In this document: piece by piece, positions 48,010 to 56,006 of the stretch | Layout of the letters: every line of letters starts with the position of its first letter | How positions within the stretch are numbered: position 1 is the stretch's first letter | NCBI GenBank assembly: GCA_963701665.1 | Contig: OY969622.1 | Location: forward strand, 480,001-544,000 | Reading direction: 5' to 3' | Source: Candidatus Babeliales bacterium | GTDB taxonomy: Bacteria; Babelota; Babeliae; Babelales; JANWKD01 | Length of the DNA stretch: 64,000 bases | Made by a program: the position numbers and the translations under genes | Notes under the pieces: generated by a model | Database searches by the model: none | Told to the model about the DNA's origin: nothing | What the model saw: the letters and a program-made list of their open reading frames with translations, nothing else

Positions 48010-48086
48010 GCGAAATATTTGTGTATTTTATGTAATCTTTTATGCTTAATAAAAGAATTATGTTTTTTAACAGCGAAAGTATTGCA

Positions 48087-48602
48087 ATGAAAACATCTCT
48101 TAAGAGTTTATGTCTTTTAATGATACTAAGTGCTGGGCTTCCTACACAGGCTAAGGCACATGATAATGCAGCGCCCATTGTTATTGGTGCAGCAGTTATA
48201 GGGGGTACCGCTGCGCTCTATGTTACGGGTCGTTGTAGCAGCGCATTGCTTTATGCAGTAGCAAAACGACGTTTTGAAGCTGAAATGGAACTTTTGCAAC
48301 GAATGGCGTTTAAAGAGAGTGTGCTTGAGGAAGAATTAGTTCCTTACATTCTTGATTGCCATGAAAAAACAAATCAATCATTCTTCTTTACTAATGGTTC
48401 CTATAAAAATTATCCACTATTGCGCTATAAAAAAGATCTTGATTTTTATATTAATTATCTTTGGTGCTTACAGCTTTTTCGCTTTGGCACCGAAACGAAG
48501 CGAGAAATTAGCACTTTCCTTGATAAATTAAAGATGATTCGTCGCTATATAATTACCGATTATCGGTTTATAAGAGAACAGCGACAGTTTGACGAGCGAT
48601 AA
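48087..48602 (+). CDS. Hypothetical secreted protein
   Basis: Signal peptide ..QAKA; YPL motif. Confidence 0.65.
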   Translation: MKTSLKSLCLLMILSAGLPTQAKAHDNAAPIVIGAAVIGGTAALYVTGRCSSALLYAVAKRRFEAEMELLQRMAFKESVLEEELVPYILDCHEKTNQSFFFTNGSYKNYPLLRYKKDLDFYINYLWCLQLFRFGTETKREISTFLDKLKMIRRYIITDYRFIREQRQFDER

Positions 48603-48642: not shown

Positions 48643-48683
48643 GATGAACTATATATTCAACTTGATAAACTTGATGGCACAGT

Positions 48684-48784
48684 TGTCATTGCGAGCCCTT
48701 GTAAAGGGCGTGGCAACCCAGATAATAAAATTAATTCATTAAAGGAATTATTAAAGTTCTGGATCCCCACGTCGCTTCGCTCCT
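48684..48784. repeat. Family A REP-dimer, copy 8, split by IS110 (remainder at 49982-49993)
   Basis: ..GGATCCCCACGTCGCTTCGCTC-CT | IS | CT-CGGGATGACA reconstitutes an intact arm. Confidence 0.9.
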
Positions 48785-48864
48785 TGTATGTTAAAACAAA
48801 AAGCATTTAAGAGTAAATTGTGATAATTTAAGAATGAAATATTGTTTAATATCGGTTGTTTGAG

Positions 48865-49005
48865 AAAAGCTGATAGATCTCGTCACGCTCCTGGTTTAGA
48901 AGAACCGTTCCTGAGTTTGAGACTATCAGCTTACACAAAATTACCTCGAACAATCACTAGAGACGTATTAGGTATACGATCTCGTATGTTTACAAGGCTG
49001 AGGTA
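48865..49005 (+). ncRNA. Predicted bridge RNA core of IS110 #1 (target- and donor-binding loops)
   Basis: Stem AAGCTGATAG/CTATCAGCTT; LTG CACGCTCCT 48884-92; RTG TCCTGAG 48909-15; LDG ACAATCACT 48950-58; RDG TACAAG 48991-96; true 5' end unknown. Confidence 0.85.
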
Positions 49006-49008
49006 TTT

Positions 49009-49950
49009 ATGAAAAACATAGCAGAAGTATATGTAGGTGTCGATATTTCAAAAAATAATCTCGATATTTATGTGTATCCTATAGGAAAATTCTTTAAAGT
49101 AGCTAACTCAGAAGTTGGCATACAGAACATAATCAAGGAATTAGCTCACTATCAAGTTACACAAATTGCCTGTGAAGCAACAGGTGGCTATGAACAATTA
49201 CTTGCCCAATTACTCAAAAAGAACCGATATTCACTTTGGATCGTTGATCCACGAAGGATAAAAGCTTTTATTATAGCTACTGGCTGTAAAAGTAAAACCG
49301 ATAAAATTGATGCTAAAAAAATTGCTGAATTCGCTTCTAAAAATTCTCCTAGTTACGAGATTGTTAACAAAAGTGAGAATCAGCATAAACTACAAGCTCT
49401 AGTTAACCGTAAAAATGATTTAGTAAAATTTTTAGCTGCTGAGAAAACACGACTTAAACATCCTTCTCACGTATTATATGTTCCTGATATAAAAAGATTT
49501 ATTGCACTCTTAGAAAGTGAAATTAAATCAATTGAGTCTCGAATACAGGATTTAGTCAAAGATGATGAAGAGTTACATACAAAATCAAACATTTTGGAAT
49601 CAATCCCAGGAATCGGTAAAGCTACAGCTGCAACATTACTTTCTTTTGTCCCTGAGCTTGGGCAGTTAAGCGACAAAAAAATATCCGCTCTAATTGGTGT
49701 CTGTCCTTATGACAATGAAAGCGGCAATTACAAAGGCAAAAAATTTATTAAGCATGGCAGGCATATTCCTCGTAAAGCACTTTATATGTGTGCATTGACC
49801 ACGGTAAAGCACCATCTTCCTTTAAGGGAATTTTACCAGCGATTAATGGATGCTAAAAAACCTTTTAAAGTAGCTATCGTTGCTATTATGCATAAGCTCA
49901 TTATAATTGCCAATGCTCTATTAAAAAGGGGCGAGTTATGTAGAGCTTGA
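49009..49950 (+). CDS. IS110-family DEDD recombinase/transposase
   Basis: GVD, CEATG, KTDKID, IPGIG, ESG (catalytic Ser), ALYM. Confidence 0.95.
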   Translation: MKNIAEVYVGVDISKNNLDIYVYPIGKFFKVANSEVGIQNIIKELAHYQVTQIACEATGGYEQLLAQLLKKNRYSLWIVDPRRIKAFIIATGCKSKTDKIDAKKIAEFASKNSPSYEIVNKSENQHKLQALVNRKNDLVKFLAAEKTRLKHPSHVLYVPDIKRFIALLESEIKSIESRIQDLVKDDEELHTKSNILESIPGIGKATAATLLSFVPELGQLSDKKISALIGVCPYDNESGNYKGKKFIKHGRHIPRKALYMCALTTVKHHLPLREFYQRLMDAKKPFKVAIVAIMHKLIIIANALLKRGELCRA

Positions 49951-50030
49951 CTATAAAAATATTTGACTTTTAACACAATCACTCGGGATGACATTCTTTT
50001 TTTCGATGCCTTTTTTTAGATAGCAACTAT

Positions 50031-50414
50031 TTATTTGCGCAAAACTTGAACTAATTGAAATCTATTACCATCAGTGTCGGTAAAAGAAGCTAATTTAACT
50101 TCATTAGGGATTTCTTGAATGCCACCGAATTTTACGCCTTGAGCTTCTAACTCTTTTTTCTTTGCAAGAAGATCGTCAACTACCATGGTGACTACGGCAC
50201 TGCTGCCAGCTTTTCCTGTTCCTGTTTCTGGTCCTTTTTGTTCTTGGCAAATACCTAAAATCATACCGCCATCATGCCCAATAACTTCAAGCCAATTATA
50301 TTCTTTTGTATATTGCTTAACTTTTAAGCCGAGCACTTCGGTATAAAATTTTTTAGCTTTTTCCAAATCTGAAACGGTGATCCAGGAAAGTTCCATTTTT
50401 TTGATGCCGGACAT
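50031..50414 (-). CDS. VOC/glyoxalase family protein
   Basis: VSDLEKAKKFYTEVLG, VDDL, FTDTDGN. Confidence 0.9.
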   Translation of the reverse strand: MSGIKKMELSWITVSDLEKAKKFYTEVLGLKVKQYTKEYNWLEVIGHDGGMILGICQEQKGPETGTGKAGSSAVVTMVVDDLLAKKKELEAQGVKFGGIQEIPNEVKLASFTDTDGNRFQLVQVLRK

Positions 50415-50488
50415 AAAAATCCTTTTTGTTATAAAAAAAATATTTTAAAATACAAAGTATTTTTATTTTAAAGATTTGAGGGTAAATG

Positions 50489-50695
50489 TCAAAGCTGGAT
50501 AGGCTTACTTTGTGTCATCGTGGTCGTTAAGTCAACATGGGCATCATGTTTAGGGTAAGGTTGATAGAATTCATCACTAAAAAAGGTGGGAGAAGTTTTA
50601 GTAACTTTACCGACGCAGGTGGGGCATGCAGAGAGGTTCAAACACGTACTAAGAAATAACAAGAAACATATGCTGCTTTTACCGAGGATAGTCAT
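50489..50695 (-). CDS. Small secreted protein with CPTC motif
   Basis: AAGGA RBS; signal peptide ending LSA then CPTC. Confidence 0.6.
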   Translation of the reverse strand: MTILGKSSICFLLFLSTCLNLSACPTCVGKVTKTSPTFFSDEFYQPYPKHDAHVDLTTTMTQSKPIQL

Positions 50696-50826
50696 AATCA
50701 GTCCTTACATTTTTTCTGTTAAGATTTCAGCGTGCAAAGTTCTGATTATATAATATCATTATATGTTTTCTAATTGCAATATATATAAGGTATTTTAGCG
50801 TATTATTACGTGTATAAAAGAAGTTT

Positions 50827-51744
50827 TTAAAAACCTCGTTCAACAATTTTTGTTGGGTTATACATAAAGAGATCCATGAGCTCTTTATCCGCTAGGAATT
50901 TGCTTATATGTGGAGCATAGTAAGGATCCTGGAGTGCACAACCGATGGTTGCTTTTATCCAGCCGATAGGATTACCGATATCATAGCGGAGACCTTGTAC
51001 TTTAAATGCAAACACTTTTTCATTATTGTGCATCATTTGTCCAATCGCATCAGTAAGCTGTAGTTCGCCTTTTGCATCAGTTTCGATCGAATCTAATGCG
51101 GAAAAGATTTTATGGGAAAGGATATAACGCCCAATAATGGCTAGATTTGAAGGGGCATCTTTTTGATCAGGTTTTTCGATGACATGGGATACTTGGAAAA
51201 GATTTGGGGTTATCTGTTTTTTTATGCCAATAATGCCATACGATGAAGTGTTATCAAGGGGAACTTCTTGAACGGCGATAACACTCGCTTTTTCTTGGCG
51301 CGCGATCTTTATAAGTTGTGCCATTGCTGATTGCTTGCTGATAATAATTTCATCAGGAAGTTGAACGCCAAAGTATTCTTTTGTTATGCAATGGCGGGCT
51401 AGCCAAACAGCATGGCCAAGACCAAGTGGTTCAGGTTGACGGATATAACTGAAATGTGCTTCTCGATTTATTTTCTTGAGTGTATTCAAAGAATCACCAA
51501 GGCCACGTTCTTTGAGTAATAGTTCAAGTTCCATGTCAAAATCGAAATGATTTACAAGAGATTCTTTATGCTTATTAAGGATAAAGAAGCAGTTAGTAAT
51601 ATTTGCTTCAAGAGCTTCTTCAACAATGTATTGCACTGCAGGTTTGTTGAGTAAAGGGATCATTTCTTTGGGTAATGCTTTAGTGAAGGGAAGAAAACGT
51701 GTCCCCAATCCTGCTGCAGGAATAATTGTTTTGATAATATCCAC
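50827..51744 (-). CDS. galU: UTP-glucose-1-phosphate uridylyltransferase
   Basis: PAAGLGTRFLP, PKEM, QPEPLGLGHA, EKP, GELQLTDA. Confidence 0.95.
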   Translation of the reverse strand: MDIIKTIIPAAGLGTRFLPFTKALPKEMIPLLNKPAVQYIVEEALEANITNCFFILNKHKESLVNHFDFDMELELLLKERGLGDSLNTLKKINREAHFSYIRQPEPLGLGHAVWLARHCITKEYFGVQLPDEIIISKQSAMAQLIKIARQEKASVIAVQEVPLDNTSSYGIIGIKKQITPNLFQVSHVIEKPDQKDAPSNLAIIGRYILSHKIFSALDSIETDAKGELQLTDAIGQMMHNNEKVFAFKVQGLRYDIGNPIGWIKATIGCALQDPYYAPHISKFLADKELMDLFMYNPTKIVERGF

Positions 51745-51773
51745 CTAAAACTCCTTTTTCAAAAAATAAGTAG

Positions 51774-52808
51774 CTAAAATTGTTTCAAAAATTCTAATTT
51801 TGCTGATGTGAATAACCGAATATCGGTTATGCGGTAATAAAGCATTGTTAATCGATCGAGGCCGAACCCAAATGCGCAACCTGAATACTTTTCGGTGTCA
51901 ATATTACAGCATCTTAAAACATCAGGATGTACAAGTCCAGCGCCGCCGATTTCAATCCATTTGGTCTTTTTGCATACAGAACAACCTTCTGTGCAGAAAG
52001 GGCATGAAATATCGACTTCAATTCCTGGCTCAACAAAAGGAAAATAACTTGAACGAACGCGAATTTCTAAATTTTCTTTTTCAAAAAATTTTCTAAAAAA
52101 AACTTTAATAGTACCAAGCAATTGTGCCATAGAAATGTTTTGATCAATAATAAGGAGCTCTAGCTGATTAAACATAAAATCATGGGTGGCATCAGTTGCT
52201 TCATGACGATATGCTCTTCCTGGCGCAATAACTGCTAAGGGCAATTCTCTTTCTTTCATTGCGTGAATTTGCACAGGAGAGGTATGCGTGCGCAAAAGTA
52301 ATCCGGGAATATCAAGCCATAGTGTATCCCATTCATCGCGAGCAGGGTGATCGGCAGGAATATTGAGTGCTTCAAAATTATAATATTCTGTTTCTGCTTC
52401 TGGGCCGTAAGCGATAGAGTAGCCCATGGAAATAAAGATATCTTGAACTTTTTTATAGATATGTGAAAGCGGATGCAAAGTTCCTCGTTGTGCATGCGGT
52501 TGATAGGCGGTAACATCGAAGAATTTTTCTTTTTGGAGCTGTTGTGTAAGAACGCCTTTTTGTAGTTCAGTAAGACGTTGGTCAAATGCCTGTTGTACAT
52601 CTTGTTTTAACTCATTTATGGCAGGGCCGACAGCTTTTTTTTCTTCCAAGGAAAGTTCTTTTAAGCGCGGCATTAACTGTGCAATAGTGCCCTGACGACC
52701 AAGGGTAGTAATGCGAAACTGCTCTAACTCCTCAAGGGTGTTAATGGTCTTGAGCATTGAAAGGCTATTATTTTTGAGCTGTTGTATTTCCTCTAAAAGC
52801 GATGGCAT
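51774..52808 (-). CDS. pheS: Phenylalanine-tRNA ligase alpha subunit
   Basis: HPARD, LRTHTS, DATH, FPFVEP, GFGLDR. Confidence 0.97.
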   Translation of the reverse strand: MPSLLEEIQQLKNNSLSMLKTINTLEELEQFRITTLGRQGTIAQLMPRLKELSLEEKKAVGPAINELKQDVQQAFDQRLTELQKGVLTQQLQKEKFFDVTAYQPHAQRGTLHPLSHIYKKVQDIFISMGYSIAYGPEAETEYYNFEALNIPADHPARDEWDTLWLDIPGLLLRTHTSPVQIHAMKERELPLAVIAPGRAYRHEATDATHDFMFNQLELLIIDQNISMAQLLGTIKVFFRKFFEKENLEIRVRSSYFPFVEPGIEVDISCPFCTEGCSVCKKTKWIEIGGAGLVHPDVLRCCNIDTEKYSGCAFGFGLDRLTMLYYRITDIRLFTSAKLEFLKQF

Positions 52809-52966
52809 AAAAAGGCACCTAACATGTTAAAAAAGATTATAGAAAGCAGCCTAACAAACCTGGATATGTTTGGCAATCTGCAAAGCGATGAAGAGTTGAC
52901 AAAAAATGCGAGATCGTTAGGCTACTAACAATACATTTCAATAAGGTTGGCCCTTACTTTTCTCAA

Positions 52967-53041
52967 GCCGAGGTAGCTCAGTGGTAGAGCATGTGCCTGA
53001 AGAGCACAGTGTCGGTGGTTCGATTCCGCTCCTCGGCACCA
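52967..53041 (+). tRNA. tRNA-Phe(GAA)
   Basis: Cloverleaf, stem TGTGC/GCACA, loop CTGAAGA, encoded CCA. Confidence 0.95.
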
Positions 53042-53247
53042 ATCTACGCCTTCATGGGGAAAAACTTCGATGTGTTATTTGGCTACGATTGGTTACGCCA
53101 GTCTTCGTTTATCCGCGCCTTCCGGCTCGGCAAACTACGCCTGGCTTCGCCCTGCATGAAGATTAACAATAATAAAAAACGAAGACTGTCCGGCATAGCT
53201 TCTTTAACGTAGAAATTGATATTCTCAAAACAAAAGCGACGACGGAC
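53042..53247 (+). repeat. Family C trailer array after tRNA-Phe (variant C1, canonical C1, C2)
   Basis: ATCTACGCC..GGCTACGATTGGTTACGCCA, then GTCTTCGTTTATCCG..CTACGCCTGGCTTCGCC, then CGAAGACTGTCCGGCATAGC..GCGACGACGGAC. Confidence 0.88.
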
Positions 53248-53416
53248 CATCTTTCGTTCATTTCCTCAATAGATCTTTCTACAATAAACCAGTATTTTTT
53301 TTTACTATACAAGTAAAAACATTTTGTTGAATTTGTATATTTTTTTTTAATACAATAATTGTTGCAGTATGATACGAAGAAATGGTGTTAAAATAAAAAA
53401 TTATTTAAGGAGCAAG

Positions 53417-53818
53417 ATGGATAAAAGGTTATTTTTTTTTATCATCATTGTACCTATGATAAGTTTAGGTGGTGTAGGGCAACTTAGAAGAGCTGATAGT
53501 GCGCCCACTACTGTTTCAGAGTATAGAAAGTATAAAAAGGAATCTAGCCCACCATTGCAAGCCAGAAAAGAGCTTTCAAAAAGCATGACACCTCAGCCAG
53601 AAATGATAAGGATTCCTAAAGAAACAAAGCAGATAGCAAAATGGTTATTGGTTCGCAAAAAAAACTATCATAGAGATGGTGAATTAACTGATGCAGCAAA
53701 TGTGCTTTATACAATGTCGAAAGAAGTAAATAAACATGATTTGCTTATACATACGGATGAAATATTATTTATAAGTCTAATGGCAAAAGCCCACATCACA
53801 AAGGAAGTGAAAGAATAA
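53417..53818 (+). CDS. Hypothetical protein
   Basis: AAGGAG RBS, signal-like N-terminus. Confidence 0.6.
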   Translation: MDKRLFFFIIIVPMISLGGVGQLRRADSAPTTVSEYRKYKKESSPPLQARKELSKSMTPQPEMIRIPKETKQIAKWLLVRKKNYHRDGELTDAANVLYTMSKEVNKHDLLIHTDEILFISLMAKAHITKEVKE

Positions 53819-53907
53819 AAATGATAAGAGCTTGTCGGCATAAGAATGTAATGTTACCTTACTAAAAAAAGAGCAGTGAAGCCCAAAAATAAAAAAAGGA
53901 TTTTGAA

Positions 53908-54561
53908 ATGAGGCAGCTTCCAGCAGATAAGTATAATGTAGCGTGGTTTAAGTTAGCAGAATTTGTCGTGCGCGGTGAAAAAGAACGAGCGTTAGGACTT
54001 TATAGACTCCTCGTTCATTCTTTTGACGATGCTGCTTTAGCCTATCAGCTCGAGGGCGATCTTTTATTATCATTTCATGATGGTGCTGCTGCAAAAGAGA
54101 AATATGAGTATGCAGCTCAAAAATATGCCCAAGCACATCGTTTTATTGAATCAGCAGCAGTCTATGAACATCTTATTTCTTTAGCATCTGATTGTCAGGA
54201 TTATCACGAACAACTTCTTTTGTTATATAAAAAATTAAACTACGATGCGCGCCTCCTTGTTGTACTTAAACAAGTAGGTGAACTTTTAGTCAAAAAAGGG
54301 CGCACTGAGGATCTTATAACGACGCTTGAACAGTATGAATCATGTCTAAATCCTCAACAACGAGCGGACATCTACGGATTTTTCACGTTGTTACTCGTAG
54401 AACATAAAAACCAACAAGCTACCATTGAACTCTATTTAGAAAAGACTGCAGAACTGCTGCTTGCTAGTGATGATACACAACAAATACCAGCATTTTTAAT
54501 GAAATTAGATGCGCTTAATACGAAGTATTATCAAAAAGTTGTTCATTATTTAAAAGACTGA
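53908..54561 (+). CDS. TPR-like helical hypothetical protein
   Basis: AAGGA RBS; helical repeat pattern (A..LY, AA.VYE). Confidence 0.65.
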   Translation: MRQLPADKYNVAWFKLAEFVVRGEKERALGLYRLLVHSFDDAALAYQLEGDLLLSFHDGAAAKEKYEYAAQKYAQAHRFIESAAVYEHLISLASDCQDYHEQLLLLYKKLNYDARLLVVLKQVGELLVKKGRTEDLITTLEQYESCLNPQQRADIYGFFTLLLVEHKNQQATIELYLEKTAELLLASDDTQQIPAFLMKLDALNTKYYQKVVHYLKD

Positions 54562-54619
54562 CAAATACACATCTCCTTACTAAAATCTATTTTTTACCTT
54601 ACGCAGTTATGCGGCCCTA

Positions 54620-54757
54620 TGCGGGCAGCACCAATGTATTGCGTGCCCAATACATTGGATACAAGGGCACCAACATTCTGTTGGATCGAACTTCCCGCGC
54701 GAAATGCGCACTCAAAAACATTGATGCTGCGCATCATGATTTTGAGCTTGTCGCGCT
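54620..54757. repeat. Palindromic GC-richer element that is the target of IS110 #2
   Basis: CCAATGTATTG/CAATACATTGG and GCGCGA..CTCAAAA..TGATGC/GCATCA..TTTTGAG..TCGCGC hairpins, ending GCGCTAC once the IS is removed. Confidence 0.65.
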
Positions 54758-54831
54758 TGTATGTTAAAAAAAGAAATAGTTTCCATACCAGATCTGTATT
54801 TACTAAGTTTTTTAATGGAAGTGTTTGCTAA

Positions 54832-54970
54832 AAAAGCTGATAGATCTCGTTGTCGCGCTTGGCCCTGAGAGACCGCCCGGTAGTTTGAGACTATCAGCTT
54901 TCAAATAGATTATCTCGAACAATCACTAGAGACATAGTGATATGATCTCGAATGTTTACAAGCAAGAGGA
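54832..54970 (+). ncRNA. Predicted bridge RNA core of IS110 #2
   Basis: Same scaffold as #1; LTG TGTCGCGCT 54851-59 equals left flank 54749-57; RTG CCGGTAG 54877-83; LDG ACAATCACT 54919-27; RDG TACAAG 54957-62. Confidence 0.87.
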
Positions 54971-54974
54971 ATGT

Positions 54975-55922
54975 ATGAAAAACATAGCAAAAGTATATAT
55001 CGGTGTCGATATTTCAAAAGATGAACTTGATATTTCTGTGTATCCAACAGGAAAATCTTTTAAAATTCCAAATGATAAACCTGGGATAAAAAAAATTATC
55101 AGATTTCTTACTAAGCATGATGTTGCACAAATTGCCTGCGAAGCAACTGGCGGCTATGAAAAATTGCTTGCACAATTGCTACAAAAAAGCTCTTATCCTT
55201 TATGGATAGTGGATCCAAGAAGGATCAAAGGCTTTATCATTGCTAGTGGCTGTAGGAGTAAAACTGATAAAAATGATGCAAAGAAAATTGCTGAATTCGC
55301 TGCTAAGAATTCACCCGACTTTGAAGTAATCAACAAAAGTGAATATCACGATTCACTCGTAGCTTTGATTAATCGCAAAAATGATTTGATAAAATTTCGT
55401 GCATCCGAGAAAACCAGATTAAAACATCCTATACACATGTTGCATCATGCAAATATAGAAAAATTCATCAAAACATTAGAAAAGGAAATTAAATCAATTA
55501 CGTTACAAATACAAAGTCTTGTGCAACAGGATGAAGCTTTACATGCAAAGTCAAAAATTCTAGAAACTATCCCAGGTATTGGCGAATCTTCTGCCATACT
55601 CTTATTGTCGTTTGTTCCTGAACTCGGGCACATAAGTAATAGCAAAATATCAGCACTCATTGGCGTTTGTCCTTATGAAAATGAAAGTGGAAAATATAAG
55701 GGTAAAAAGTTTATTAGAGGCGGTAGAACGATTCCAAGGAAAGCTCTTTACATGTGTGCTTTGGCAACAATTAAATATTACCCACCTTTAAAAGCATTTT
55801 ACAATCGACTAATCACAGCTAAAAAACCTTTCAAAGTCGCTCTTGTTGCCGTAATGCATAAACTTATTATTATTGCTAATTCACTCTTAAGAAAAGGTGA
55901 AGTATGTGTAACTTTTAATTGA
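54975..55922 (+). CDS. IS110-family DEDD recombinase/transposase
   Basis: GVD, CEATG, KTDKND, IPGIG, ESG, ALYM; start set by alignment to #1 and GAGGA RBS. Confidence 0.95.
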   Translation: MKNIAKVYIGVDISKDELDISVYPTGKSFKIPNDKPGIKKIIRFLTKHDVAQIACEATGGYEKLLAQLLQKSSYPLWIVDPRRIKGFIIASGCRSKTDKNDAKKIAEFAAKNSPDFEVINKSEYHDSLVALINRKNDLIKFRASEKTRLKHPIHMLHHANIEKFIKTLEKEIKSITLQIQSLVQQDEALHAKSKILETIPGIGESSAILLLSFVPELGHISNSKISALIGVCPYENESGKYKGKKFIRGGRTIPRKALYMCALATIKYYPPLKAFYNRLITAKKPFKVALVAVMHKLIIIANSLLRKGEVCVTFN

Positions 55923-56006
55923 CTTTTAACACAATCACTACAGGACTTTAATAAATTCCTTAATGAGTAATTTTATATAGGAATTTTCGCATCAAAGAGT
56001 CTTTTA

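Follow-up and report, generated by a model that had tools for sequence, protein, structure and literature searches.

Two insertion sequences of the IS110 group, here called E1 and E2, are found in a 64,000-nt stretch of a Candidatus Babeliales genome (contig OY969622.1, positions 480,001 to 544,000; the whole stretch is referred to as the window, and all coordinates refer to it unless a genome label is given). Very probably, they are long-diverged, intact siblings with a common donor junction that use an IS621-like bridge mechanism, each being steered by its RNA to a different module of host repeats. Both targets are host palindromic repeats, a point overlooked in the original prediction made from this DNA. 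On every sequence-level feature tested, a 5' stem-loop excepted, E1 and E2 are intact IS110-group (IS621-like) members of the bridge family. They are new members of a known family, and the tables of PMC11208160 and two mining preprints of 2026 may already hold them; in the literature we found nothing on IS110 in Dependentiae, nor on insertion sequences associated with repeats in Babeliae. Since the mechanism is known, the value lies in the data set, a compact bridge-recombinase clade far from IS621 in which one donor is combined with many natural targets.

Shared ends, recombinases and predicted bridge RNAs

E1 occupies 48783-49983 (plus strand, 1201 bp including both CT cores) and E2 occupies 54756-55939 (plus strand, 1184 bp). 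The host genome is a single contig of 1.34 Mb that contains three copies of E1, 100% identical to each other, and a single copy of E2; a Pfam search of the genome found no further IS110 genes. Both elements start with CT-TGTAT and finish with ACAATCA-CT, their donor 14-mers are identical and their terminal 20-24 bp are near-identical. The shared ends and the donor junction ACAATCA-CT-TGTAT had been proposed originally, and every motif listed there was found in its place. CT alone is duplicated at all four insertions (three of E1 and one of E2), and the elements have no long terminal repeats and no duplication past this short core, as is usual in the IS110 family. The left ends (226 nt in E1, 219 nt in E2) are longer than the right ends (33 and 17 nt after the stop codon) and contain the predicted RNA, an arrangement that characterizes the IS110 group (PMC11208160). 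The hallmarks of IS1111, sub-terminal inverted repeats of 7-17 bp and an RNA in a long right end, are absent: the right ends are short and no such inverted repeat is among those listed.

The recombinases of E1 (49009-49950, plus strand, 313 aa) and E2 (54975-55922, plus strand, 315 aa) both carry PF01548 and PF02371, and score 202 and 190 bits with NCBIfam NF033542 (cut-off 140). The catalytic residues of E1 are D12/E56/D98/D101 and, in the C-terminal PF02371 domain, the conserved serine S238; the same positions are present in E2. Only two solved structures were matched, IS621 from Escherichia coli (PDB 8wt6; E 1.5e-35, distant in sequence) and, as the best match, ISCro4/IS622 (PDB 9t56; E 3.3e-37), and in both alignments the DEDD and serine residues are intact. 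ISCro4 is 88% identical to IS621 and has the same 14-nt target/donor geometry and handshake guides (10.1101/2025.05.14.653916). Compared with it, the E1/E2 enzymes form a separate, shorter clade (313-315 aa) of low-GC Babeliales. The clade comprises 307 proteins at E 1e-60 or better; a search of viral contigs gave two distant matches only, and the best matches in plasmids were below 40% identity.

According to the published accounts of IS621, its organization agrees with that of E1 and E2 in the DEDD RuvC and Tnp serine residues, the CT core, a long left end with a target loop followed by a donor loop, a sigma-70 promoter at the junction, the position-7 handshake rule and insertion in repetitive extragenic palindromic (REP) sequences (PMC11208160; PMC11208158). 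By the handshake rule, the bases that follow each right guide pair with position 7 of the opposite DNA (PMC11208158). In E1, the predicted target-binding loop (48868-48931, plus strand) holds the left guide at 48884-48892, the right guide at 48909-48915 and the handshake bases at 48916-48917, and the predicted donor-binding loop (48943-49004, plus strand) holds the corresponding segments at 48950-48958, 48990-48996 and 48997-48998. In E2, these segments are predicted at 54851-54859, 54877-54883 and 54884-54885 in the target-binding loop (54835-54899, plus strand) and at 54919-54927, 54956-54962 and 54963-54964 in the donor-binding loop (54912-54970, plus strand). The left donor guide is ACAATCACT and the right donor guide is TTACAAG in both elements. 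The original prediction assigned the same donor guides to both; these motifs are indeed present in both, but the loops are not alike in the handshake dinucleotide (GC in E1, CA in E2) or the inner stem. At donor positions 6-7, E1 and E2 have C/A and IS621 has A/T.

The two-loop non-coding scaffold proposed upstream of the recombinase gained support from compensatory pairs: changes on both sides were found in 13 of 32 pairs, which none of 500 shuffles reached, and pairing was 96%, against 30-41% in slid controls. Both stem-loops have internal loops, and the target loop is variable and the donor loop conserved, as in other IS110-group elements. An IS621-type bridge architecture with a CT core, and with it two new orthologues, is thus predicted here as it was originally. 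Ahead of the target loop only weak, AU-rich hairpins could be formed in place of a 5' stem-loop, and the leader is poorly conserved. An Rfam scan gave nothing on the left ends, tRNA-Phe being the sole real match. Our own model, R1, also picks up left ends of distant IS110 elements, among them one carried by a Klebsiella plasmid (E 1e-4). With R1, no orphan bridge RNA was found in the genome, all four matches lying beside a recombinase gene (21 candidates scored per genome).

In both elements, joining of the ends would create the promoter TTGACT-17-TATGTT, the same junction-promoter arrangement as described for IS621 (PMC11208160). The -10 box TATGTT of E1 (48787-48792, plus strand) and the -35 box TTGACT in its right end (49963-49968, plus strand) are 17 nt apart only in the circular form, and the integrated element has no -35 box there. 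In E2, the -10 box is at 54760-54765 (plus strand) and the stop codon of the recombinase gene overlaps the -35 box (55919-55924). Circle junctions were not found in four DNA sequencing runs, whose coverage is too patchy for that to count. In one element (L179, genome G114), the left end begins with a tandem duplication of its first ~19 bases, which may be a relic of donor-into-donor recombination. A further promoter-like site, TCGACA-17-TATGTT (with TG), is situated on the minus strand at the start of both recombinase genes (49043-49015 and 55009-54981). It aims back over the ribosome site and the bridge RNA, and may reflect antisense control or a by-product of conserved codons; counts of such sites in the region were near shuffle levels.

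Guides, handshake bases and repeats as targets

The 12 non-core guide positions were scored at every CT in the genome (~134,400 other sites). E2 matches its own site at 11 of 12 positions, and no other site reaches 11. The three E1 sites score 10, 10 and 9; elsewhere 12 sites score at least 10 and 48 score 9, placing E1 among the top ~60. When the guides were swapped between the two elements, only 1-3 of 12 positions matched. In agreement with the original prediction, the left and right target guides of E2 match 9/9 and 6/7, and those of E1 match 7/9 and, at the copy in the window, 6/7. It had been suggested that the flanks of other copies be collected, and the other two E1 sites match the right guide 7/7. 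Eight of the nine next-best E2 sites are empty copies of the repeat in which E2 lies (repeat 2), and among the 12 best empty sites for E1 eight are copies of the repeat in which E1 lies (repeat 1). That the guide matches arose by chance, or are relics of dead elements, is hardly credible in view of the rank of the E2 site and the three identical E1 copies, as well as the compensated RNA stems and the intact reading frames under purifying selection.

Relatives were sought in genome and metagenome contigs and in 261 genomes of the phylum, of which 18 were positive. From Babeliales genomes and metagenomes, this gave a set of 16 distinct left ends (at least 58% protein identity) with 26 insertion sites. 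Elements below 58% identity were kept outside the permutation test; L184, L185 and L014 were dropped since their left ends were not found by the pattern, and L082 and L194 since they were without a right flank. Fixed scaffold anchors, and not the best match, defined the position of each guide, and the core was left out of the scoring. The match to the element's own target was 0.66 for the left guide, 0.82 for the right guide and 0.94 for the handshake, against 0.38, 0.39 and 0.59 after permutation, and none of 5000 permutations reached any of these values. In eight pairs (five sister pairs from the tree and three chosen by hand), the totals for own targets exceeded the totals for crossed targets in every case; the margin was narrow for L001/L083, whose right guides are identical. 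Thus, as in the IS110 group generally, the guides of the one loop covary with the target and those of the other match the donor, and the claim that target guides follow insertion sites holds across the 16 left ends. Clade-wide covariation of guides and targets has already been stated (PMC11208160), and natural reprogramming among relatives has been published (PMC11187229). In the E1/E2 clade, the match extends over the 7-nt right guide and is loose in the outer left guide; wild-type IS621 has the opposite pattern (9+4). The clade thus shows that a loosely matching left guide can suffice in combination with a right guide of 7 nt.

Some individual elements merit mention. L171 (G001:C6:254017-254955) and L200 (G164) match by the right guide only, with 1/7 on the left, and are natural candidates for insertion by half-match. 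For L002/L183 (G087), the DNA on the right side repeats a stretch from the left of the element and misfits the right guide, so that a local rearrangement is possible.

The handshake bases follow the targets as well. The donor-loop base and position 7 of the target form G:C in E1 and C:G in E2, and the pairing is Watson-Crick in 15 of the 16 close left ends and in 23 of 26 in the wider set; the target-loop handshake pairs with position 7 of the donor in 15/16. The donor-loop handshake base follows the target, so that the donor loops differ and this base is part of natural retargeting; the clade shows it moving along with the target guides. In L180, the donor-loop handshake base is U, predicted to pair at position 7 with the target as well as with its own donor, a situation reported to be inhibitory for IS621; L087 has the same U, and its donor was not recovered.

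Repeat 1 (left part 48683-48782, remainder 49984-49992) is a CGTC/TGTC-tagged, head-to-head REP-like dimer split by E1. A motif scan revealed 53 empty right arms of this repeat and BLAST 120 pieces. E1 sits in the right arm of the dimer, its three copies sharing both the base of insertion and the orientation. The repeat has TGTC ends, stems starting with AT, CCA tails and a head-to-head arrangement, as described for CGTC REPs (PMC3733652). However, its loops carry an extra small hairpin and exceed in length the 4-5 nt loops of CGTC-1 to -4, and repeat 1 is therefore regarded as CGTC-like and is not filed in a numbered family. Repeat 2 (54595-54755), split by E2, is a long hairpin mosaic ending in CTAC, with eight empty copies elsewhere. 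E2 is located at this CTAC end, and the tag is present in five of nine copies (the occupied site and 4/8 empty ones). IS621 likewise inserts at the CT of the terminal CTAC of its target, ATCAGGCCTAC. CTAC is GTAG on the other strand, which recalls the GTAG-tagged REPs (PMC3733652, in the main text of which the term IS110 is absent); repeat 2 differs from those tagged REPs in being a long mosaic that is followed by a repeat-1-type arm in 8/8 empty copies. This arm implies that the two repeats are modules of one mosaic and not independent families.

A third module is used in a genome of the same genus (G001), where a third sibling is present in five copies and four of these are in this module. 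The E1/E2 genome has 10 empty copies of the third module, and G001 also holds repeats 1 and 2. To the right of E2, AT-rich DNA (55941-55974) is an inverted copy, 79% identical, of the repeat-1 spacer (48728-48761), a further sign of a mosaic. Y1 transposases are also encoded in the genome, and repeat-2 pieces were found near one of four loci examined. Three tandem, identically scoring Y1 (IS200-like) genes lie ~566 bp apart at G000:C1:1253004-1254495; there are two further copies and a broken one, and the repeat-2 pieces are near the copy at 79824-80183.

It may be asked whether the DNA hairpin of the repeat, or half-matching, mainly sets the site, with the guides only fine-tuning it. We consider this unlikely. 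All three E1 copies are in repeats though four of the 12 best empty sites lie outside repeats, and the outer left-guide positions match poorly; moreover, a target stem-loop requirement has been reported for ISPpu10 (10.64898/2026.03.19.712850) and half-match insertion for IS621 (10.64898/2026.08.31.748434). However, guides and targets covary on both sides and at the handshake, and each element keeps to its own module though both modules are hairpins of the same mosaic. Several flanks fold no better than shuffles, and three insertions are too few to establish a preference beyond sequence. The hairpin test on target flanks gave mixed results (z from +1.0 to -4.8), and so neither favours nor disfavours a structural gate.

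Several points weigh against steering by bridge RNA to repeat modules as a complete account. The permutation counts overstate significance because the clade members are kin. Left-guide positions 1-5 are loose (0.30-0.68), positions 6-7 being tight, and four sites match only 1-2/7 on the left. L183 scores 0/5 with the right guide, owing to a parsing slip (2/5 by eye), and was kept as a miss. In unconstrained folding, the donor loop is not the preferred form in E2, nor in E1 when the leader is included. Of five more distant genomes, two have a flank that is repetitive right up to the insertion point, two have repetition only further out and one has a unique flank, so that the use of repeats is common but not the rule. 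The RNA, the circles and the activity of E1 and E2 are predictions from sequence, and because E2 is present as a single copy its current activity is uncertain.

Relationship between the two elements

The original prediction regarded E1 and E2 as a retargeting pair in one genome. In its strict form, this would mean that one element was copied recently in this genome and its target loop rewritten, leaving a before-and-after pair. The pair has the same ends and the same donor guides and lies 6 kb apart. In the tree, the two are united with the G001 element in a single branch (support 95/87), and this genome is the only one of the 18 positive genomes with two distinct members. However, E1 and E2 are 69% identical in protein, 72% in coding DNA and 53% in the 5' leader. 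Their dS is 1.27 and dN 0.21 (dN/dS about 0.16), with synonymous sites near saturation, from which it follows that the split is old and that both recombinases are under purifying selection. E1 is nearer to the G001 element (76% amino acid identity, with weak branch support, 90/60) than to E2. The donor junction is the same in most clade members, with one base different in three, and the shared donor is therefore a trait of the clade. These data largely refute recent retargeting, which is left highly improbable: the guides do differ with the targets, as originally stated, but conversion of one element into the other was an overstatement, and E1 and E2 are best read, from sequence comparison, as old siblings on different sites. 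In the relatives of the seekRNA study, ISEc11/ISXne4 and ISEc21/ISMch6, changed guides likewise go with matching changed targets (PMC11187229); here, by contrast, siblings coexist in one chromosome in two modules of one mosaic, with a third module occupied by the sibling from the same genus.

By analogy with IS621, the ends of an element would be joined into a circle, and the junction promoter would drive a single transcript that supplies both bridge RNA and recombinase. Two recombinase dimers would then hold the target and donor loops, the top strands would be cut beside CT and exchanged with the help of the handshake bases, and the element would land in a repeat with little harm to the host. 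The clade further suggests that the donor side stays fixed and that target guides and the donor-loop handshake base drift jointly to new repeat modules, which would allow siblings to coexist on different sites.

The shared donor makes cross-compatibility of E1 and E2 plausible, and it may even be that they act as one system, in which each complex would excise the element of the other, or release as a circle the 7157-bp span from the left end of E1 to the right end of E2. We consider this possible, if somewhat less likely than not, and it is compatible with the sibling interpretation. The near-identical termini and the identical 14-bp donor, together with donor-only excision of IS621 in vitro (10.64898/2026.08.31.748434), suggest that either complex might perform such excisions, and large cargo-carrying IS110 forms have been reported (10.64898/2026.08.14.744561). 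On the other hand, none of the four insertions is in the site type of the other element, no second copy of the span exists, and the handshake bases are tuned to their own targets. A true cut-out of the span would be lethal because it holds pheS and tRNA-Phe. Two siblings in one chromosome provide a ready test of cross-mobilization and of donor-only excision.

The leader segment and surrounding DNA

A segment of the E1 leader just 5' of the target loop (48854-48864, plus strand) can form 11 pairs, two of them G:U, with the 5' strand of the donor loop (48945-48955), which covers most of the left donor guide. The rest of the leader is divergent, and this candidate switch segment is its best-conserved part. 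The complementarity (at most 1/300 shuffles) is found in 14 of the 16 clade members and fails in E2 and L183; with two other partner strands, it was found in 0/16, and among distant relatives 1 of 18 parsed reaches at most 3/300 shuffles. In 15/16, the closing arm of the donor loop is GAGG, which precedes the start codon by 5-6 nt and is likely to be the Shine-Dalgarno sequence; in E1 (49000-49003, plus strand) the distance is 5 nt, and in E2 the arm is at 54966-54969. When the segment was shuffled, the closing probability of the donor loop rose in 9/16 (from 0.01 to 0.98 in E1), and when a neighbouring window was shuffled it rose in 0/16.

As a tentative proposal, more probably wrong than right, the leader pairing would open the donor loop and free the Shine-Dalgarno sequence, so that one transcript serves either as mRNA or as bridge RNA; binding of the recombinase would flip it to the guide state and halt its own translation. 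If, in addition, target loops move from module to module while the donor stays fixed, the result would be a family of bridge recombinases that is self-limiting and partitioned by niche. Covariation between leader and donor loop is thin, with one pair changed on both sides in two sequences; 24 of 500 shuffles reach this level, and it is not counted as proof. Also against a switch, E2 is without the segment, and protein-free folding is a poor guide to the ribonucleoprotein. The leader match could instead go back to one inverted copy in an ancestor, or it could mark an internal promoter or a DNA site. We found no counterpart of the segment in the passages on IS621 that were consulted, and no description of a translational switch in bridge RNAs in the literature searched; the element tables of PMC11208160 and the two mining preprints may already contain the leader feature. 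The dual role of one transcript was left open in the account of PMC11187229, and a guide-versus-mRNA switch, if true, would bear on the way in which a single transcript supplies both bridge RNA and message.

The host DNA between the elements (49984-54755) contains a glyoxalase-like gene, a galU-like gene, pheS, tRNA-Phe and two unknown open reading frames, and would form the cargo of the hypothetical composite circle of 7157 bp. The two unknown frames (53369-53818 and 53908-54561) have no match in Pfam or NCBIfam, and a third frame, at 48042-48602, has no match in Pfam. Directly after tRNA-Phe (52967-53041) lies a GC-rich hairpin repeat (53040-53160).

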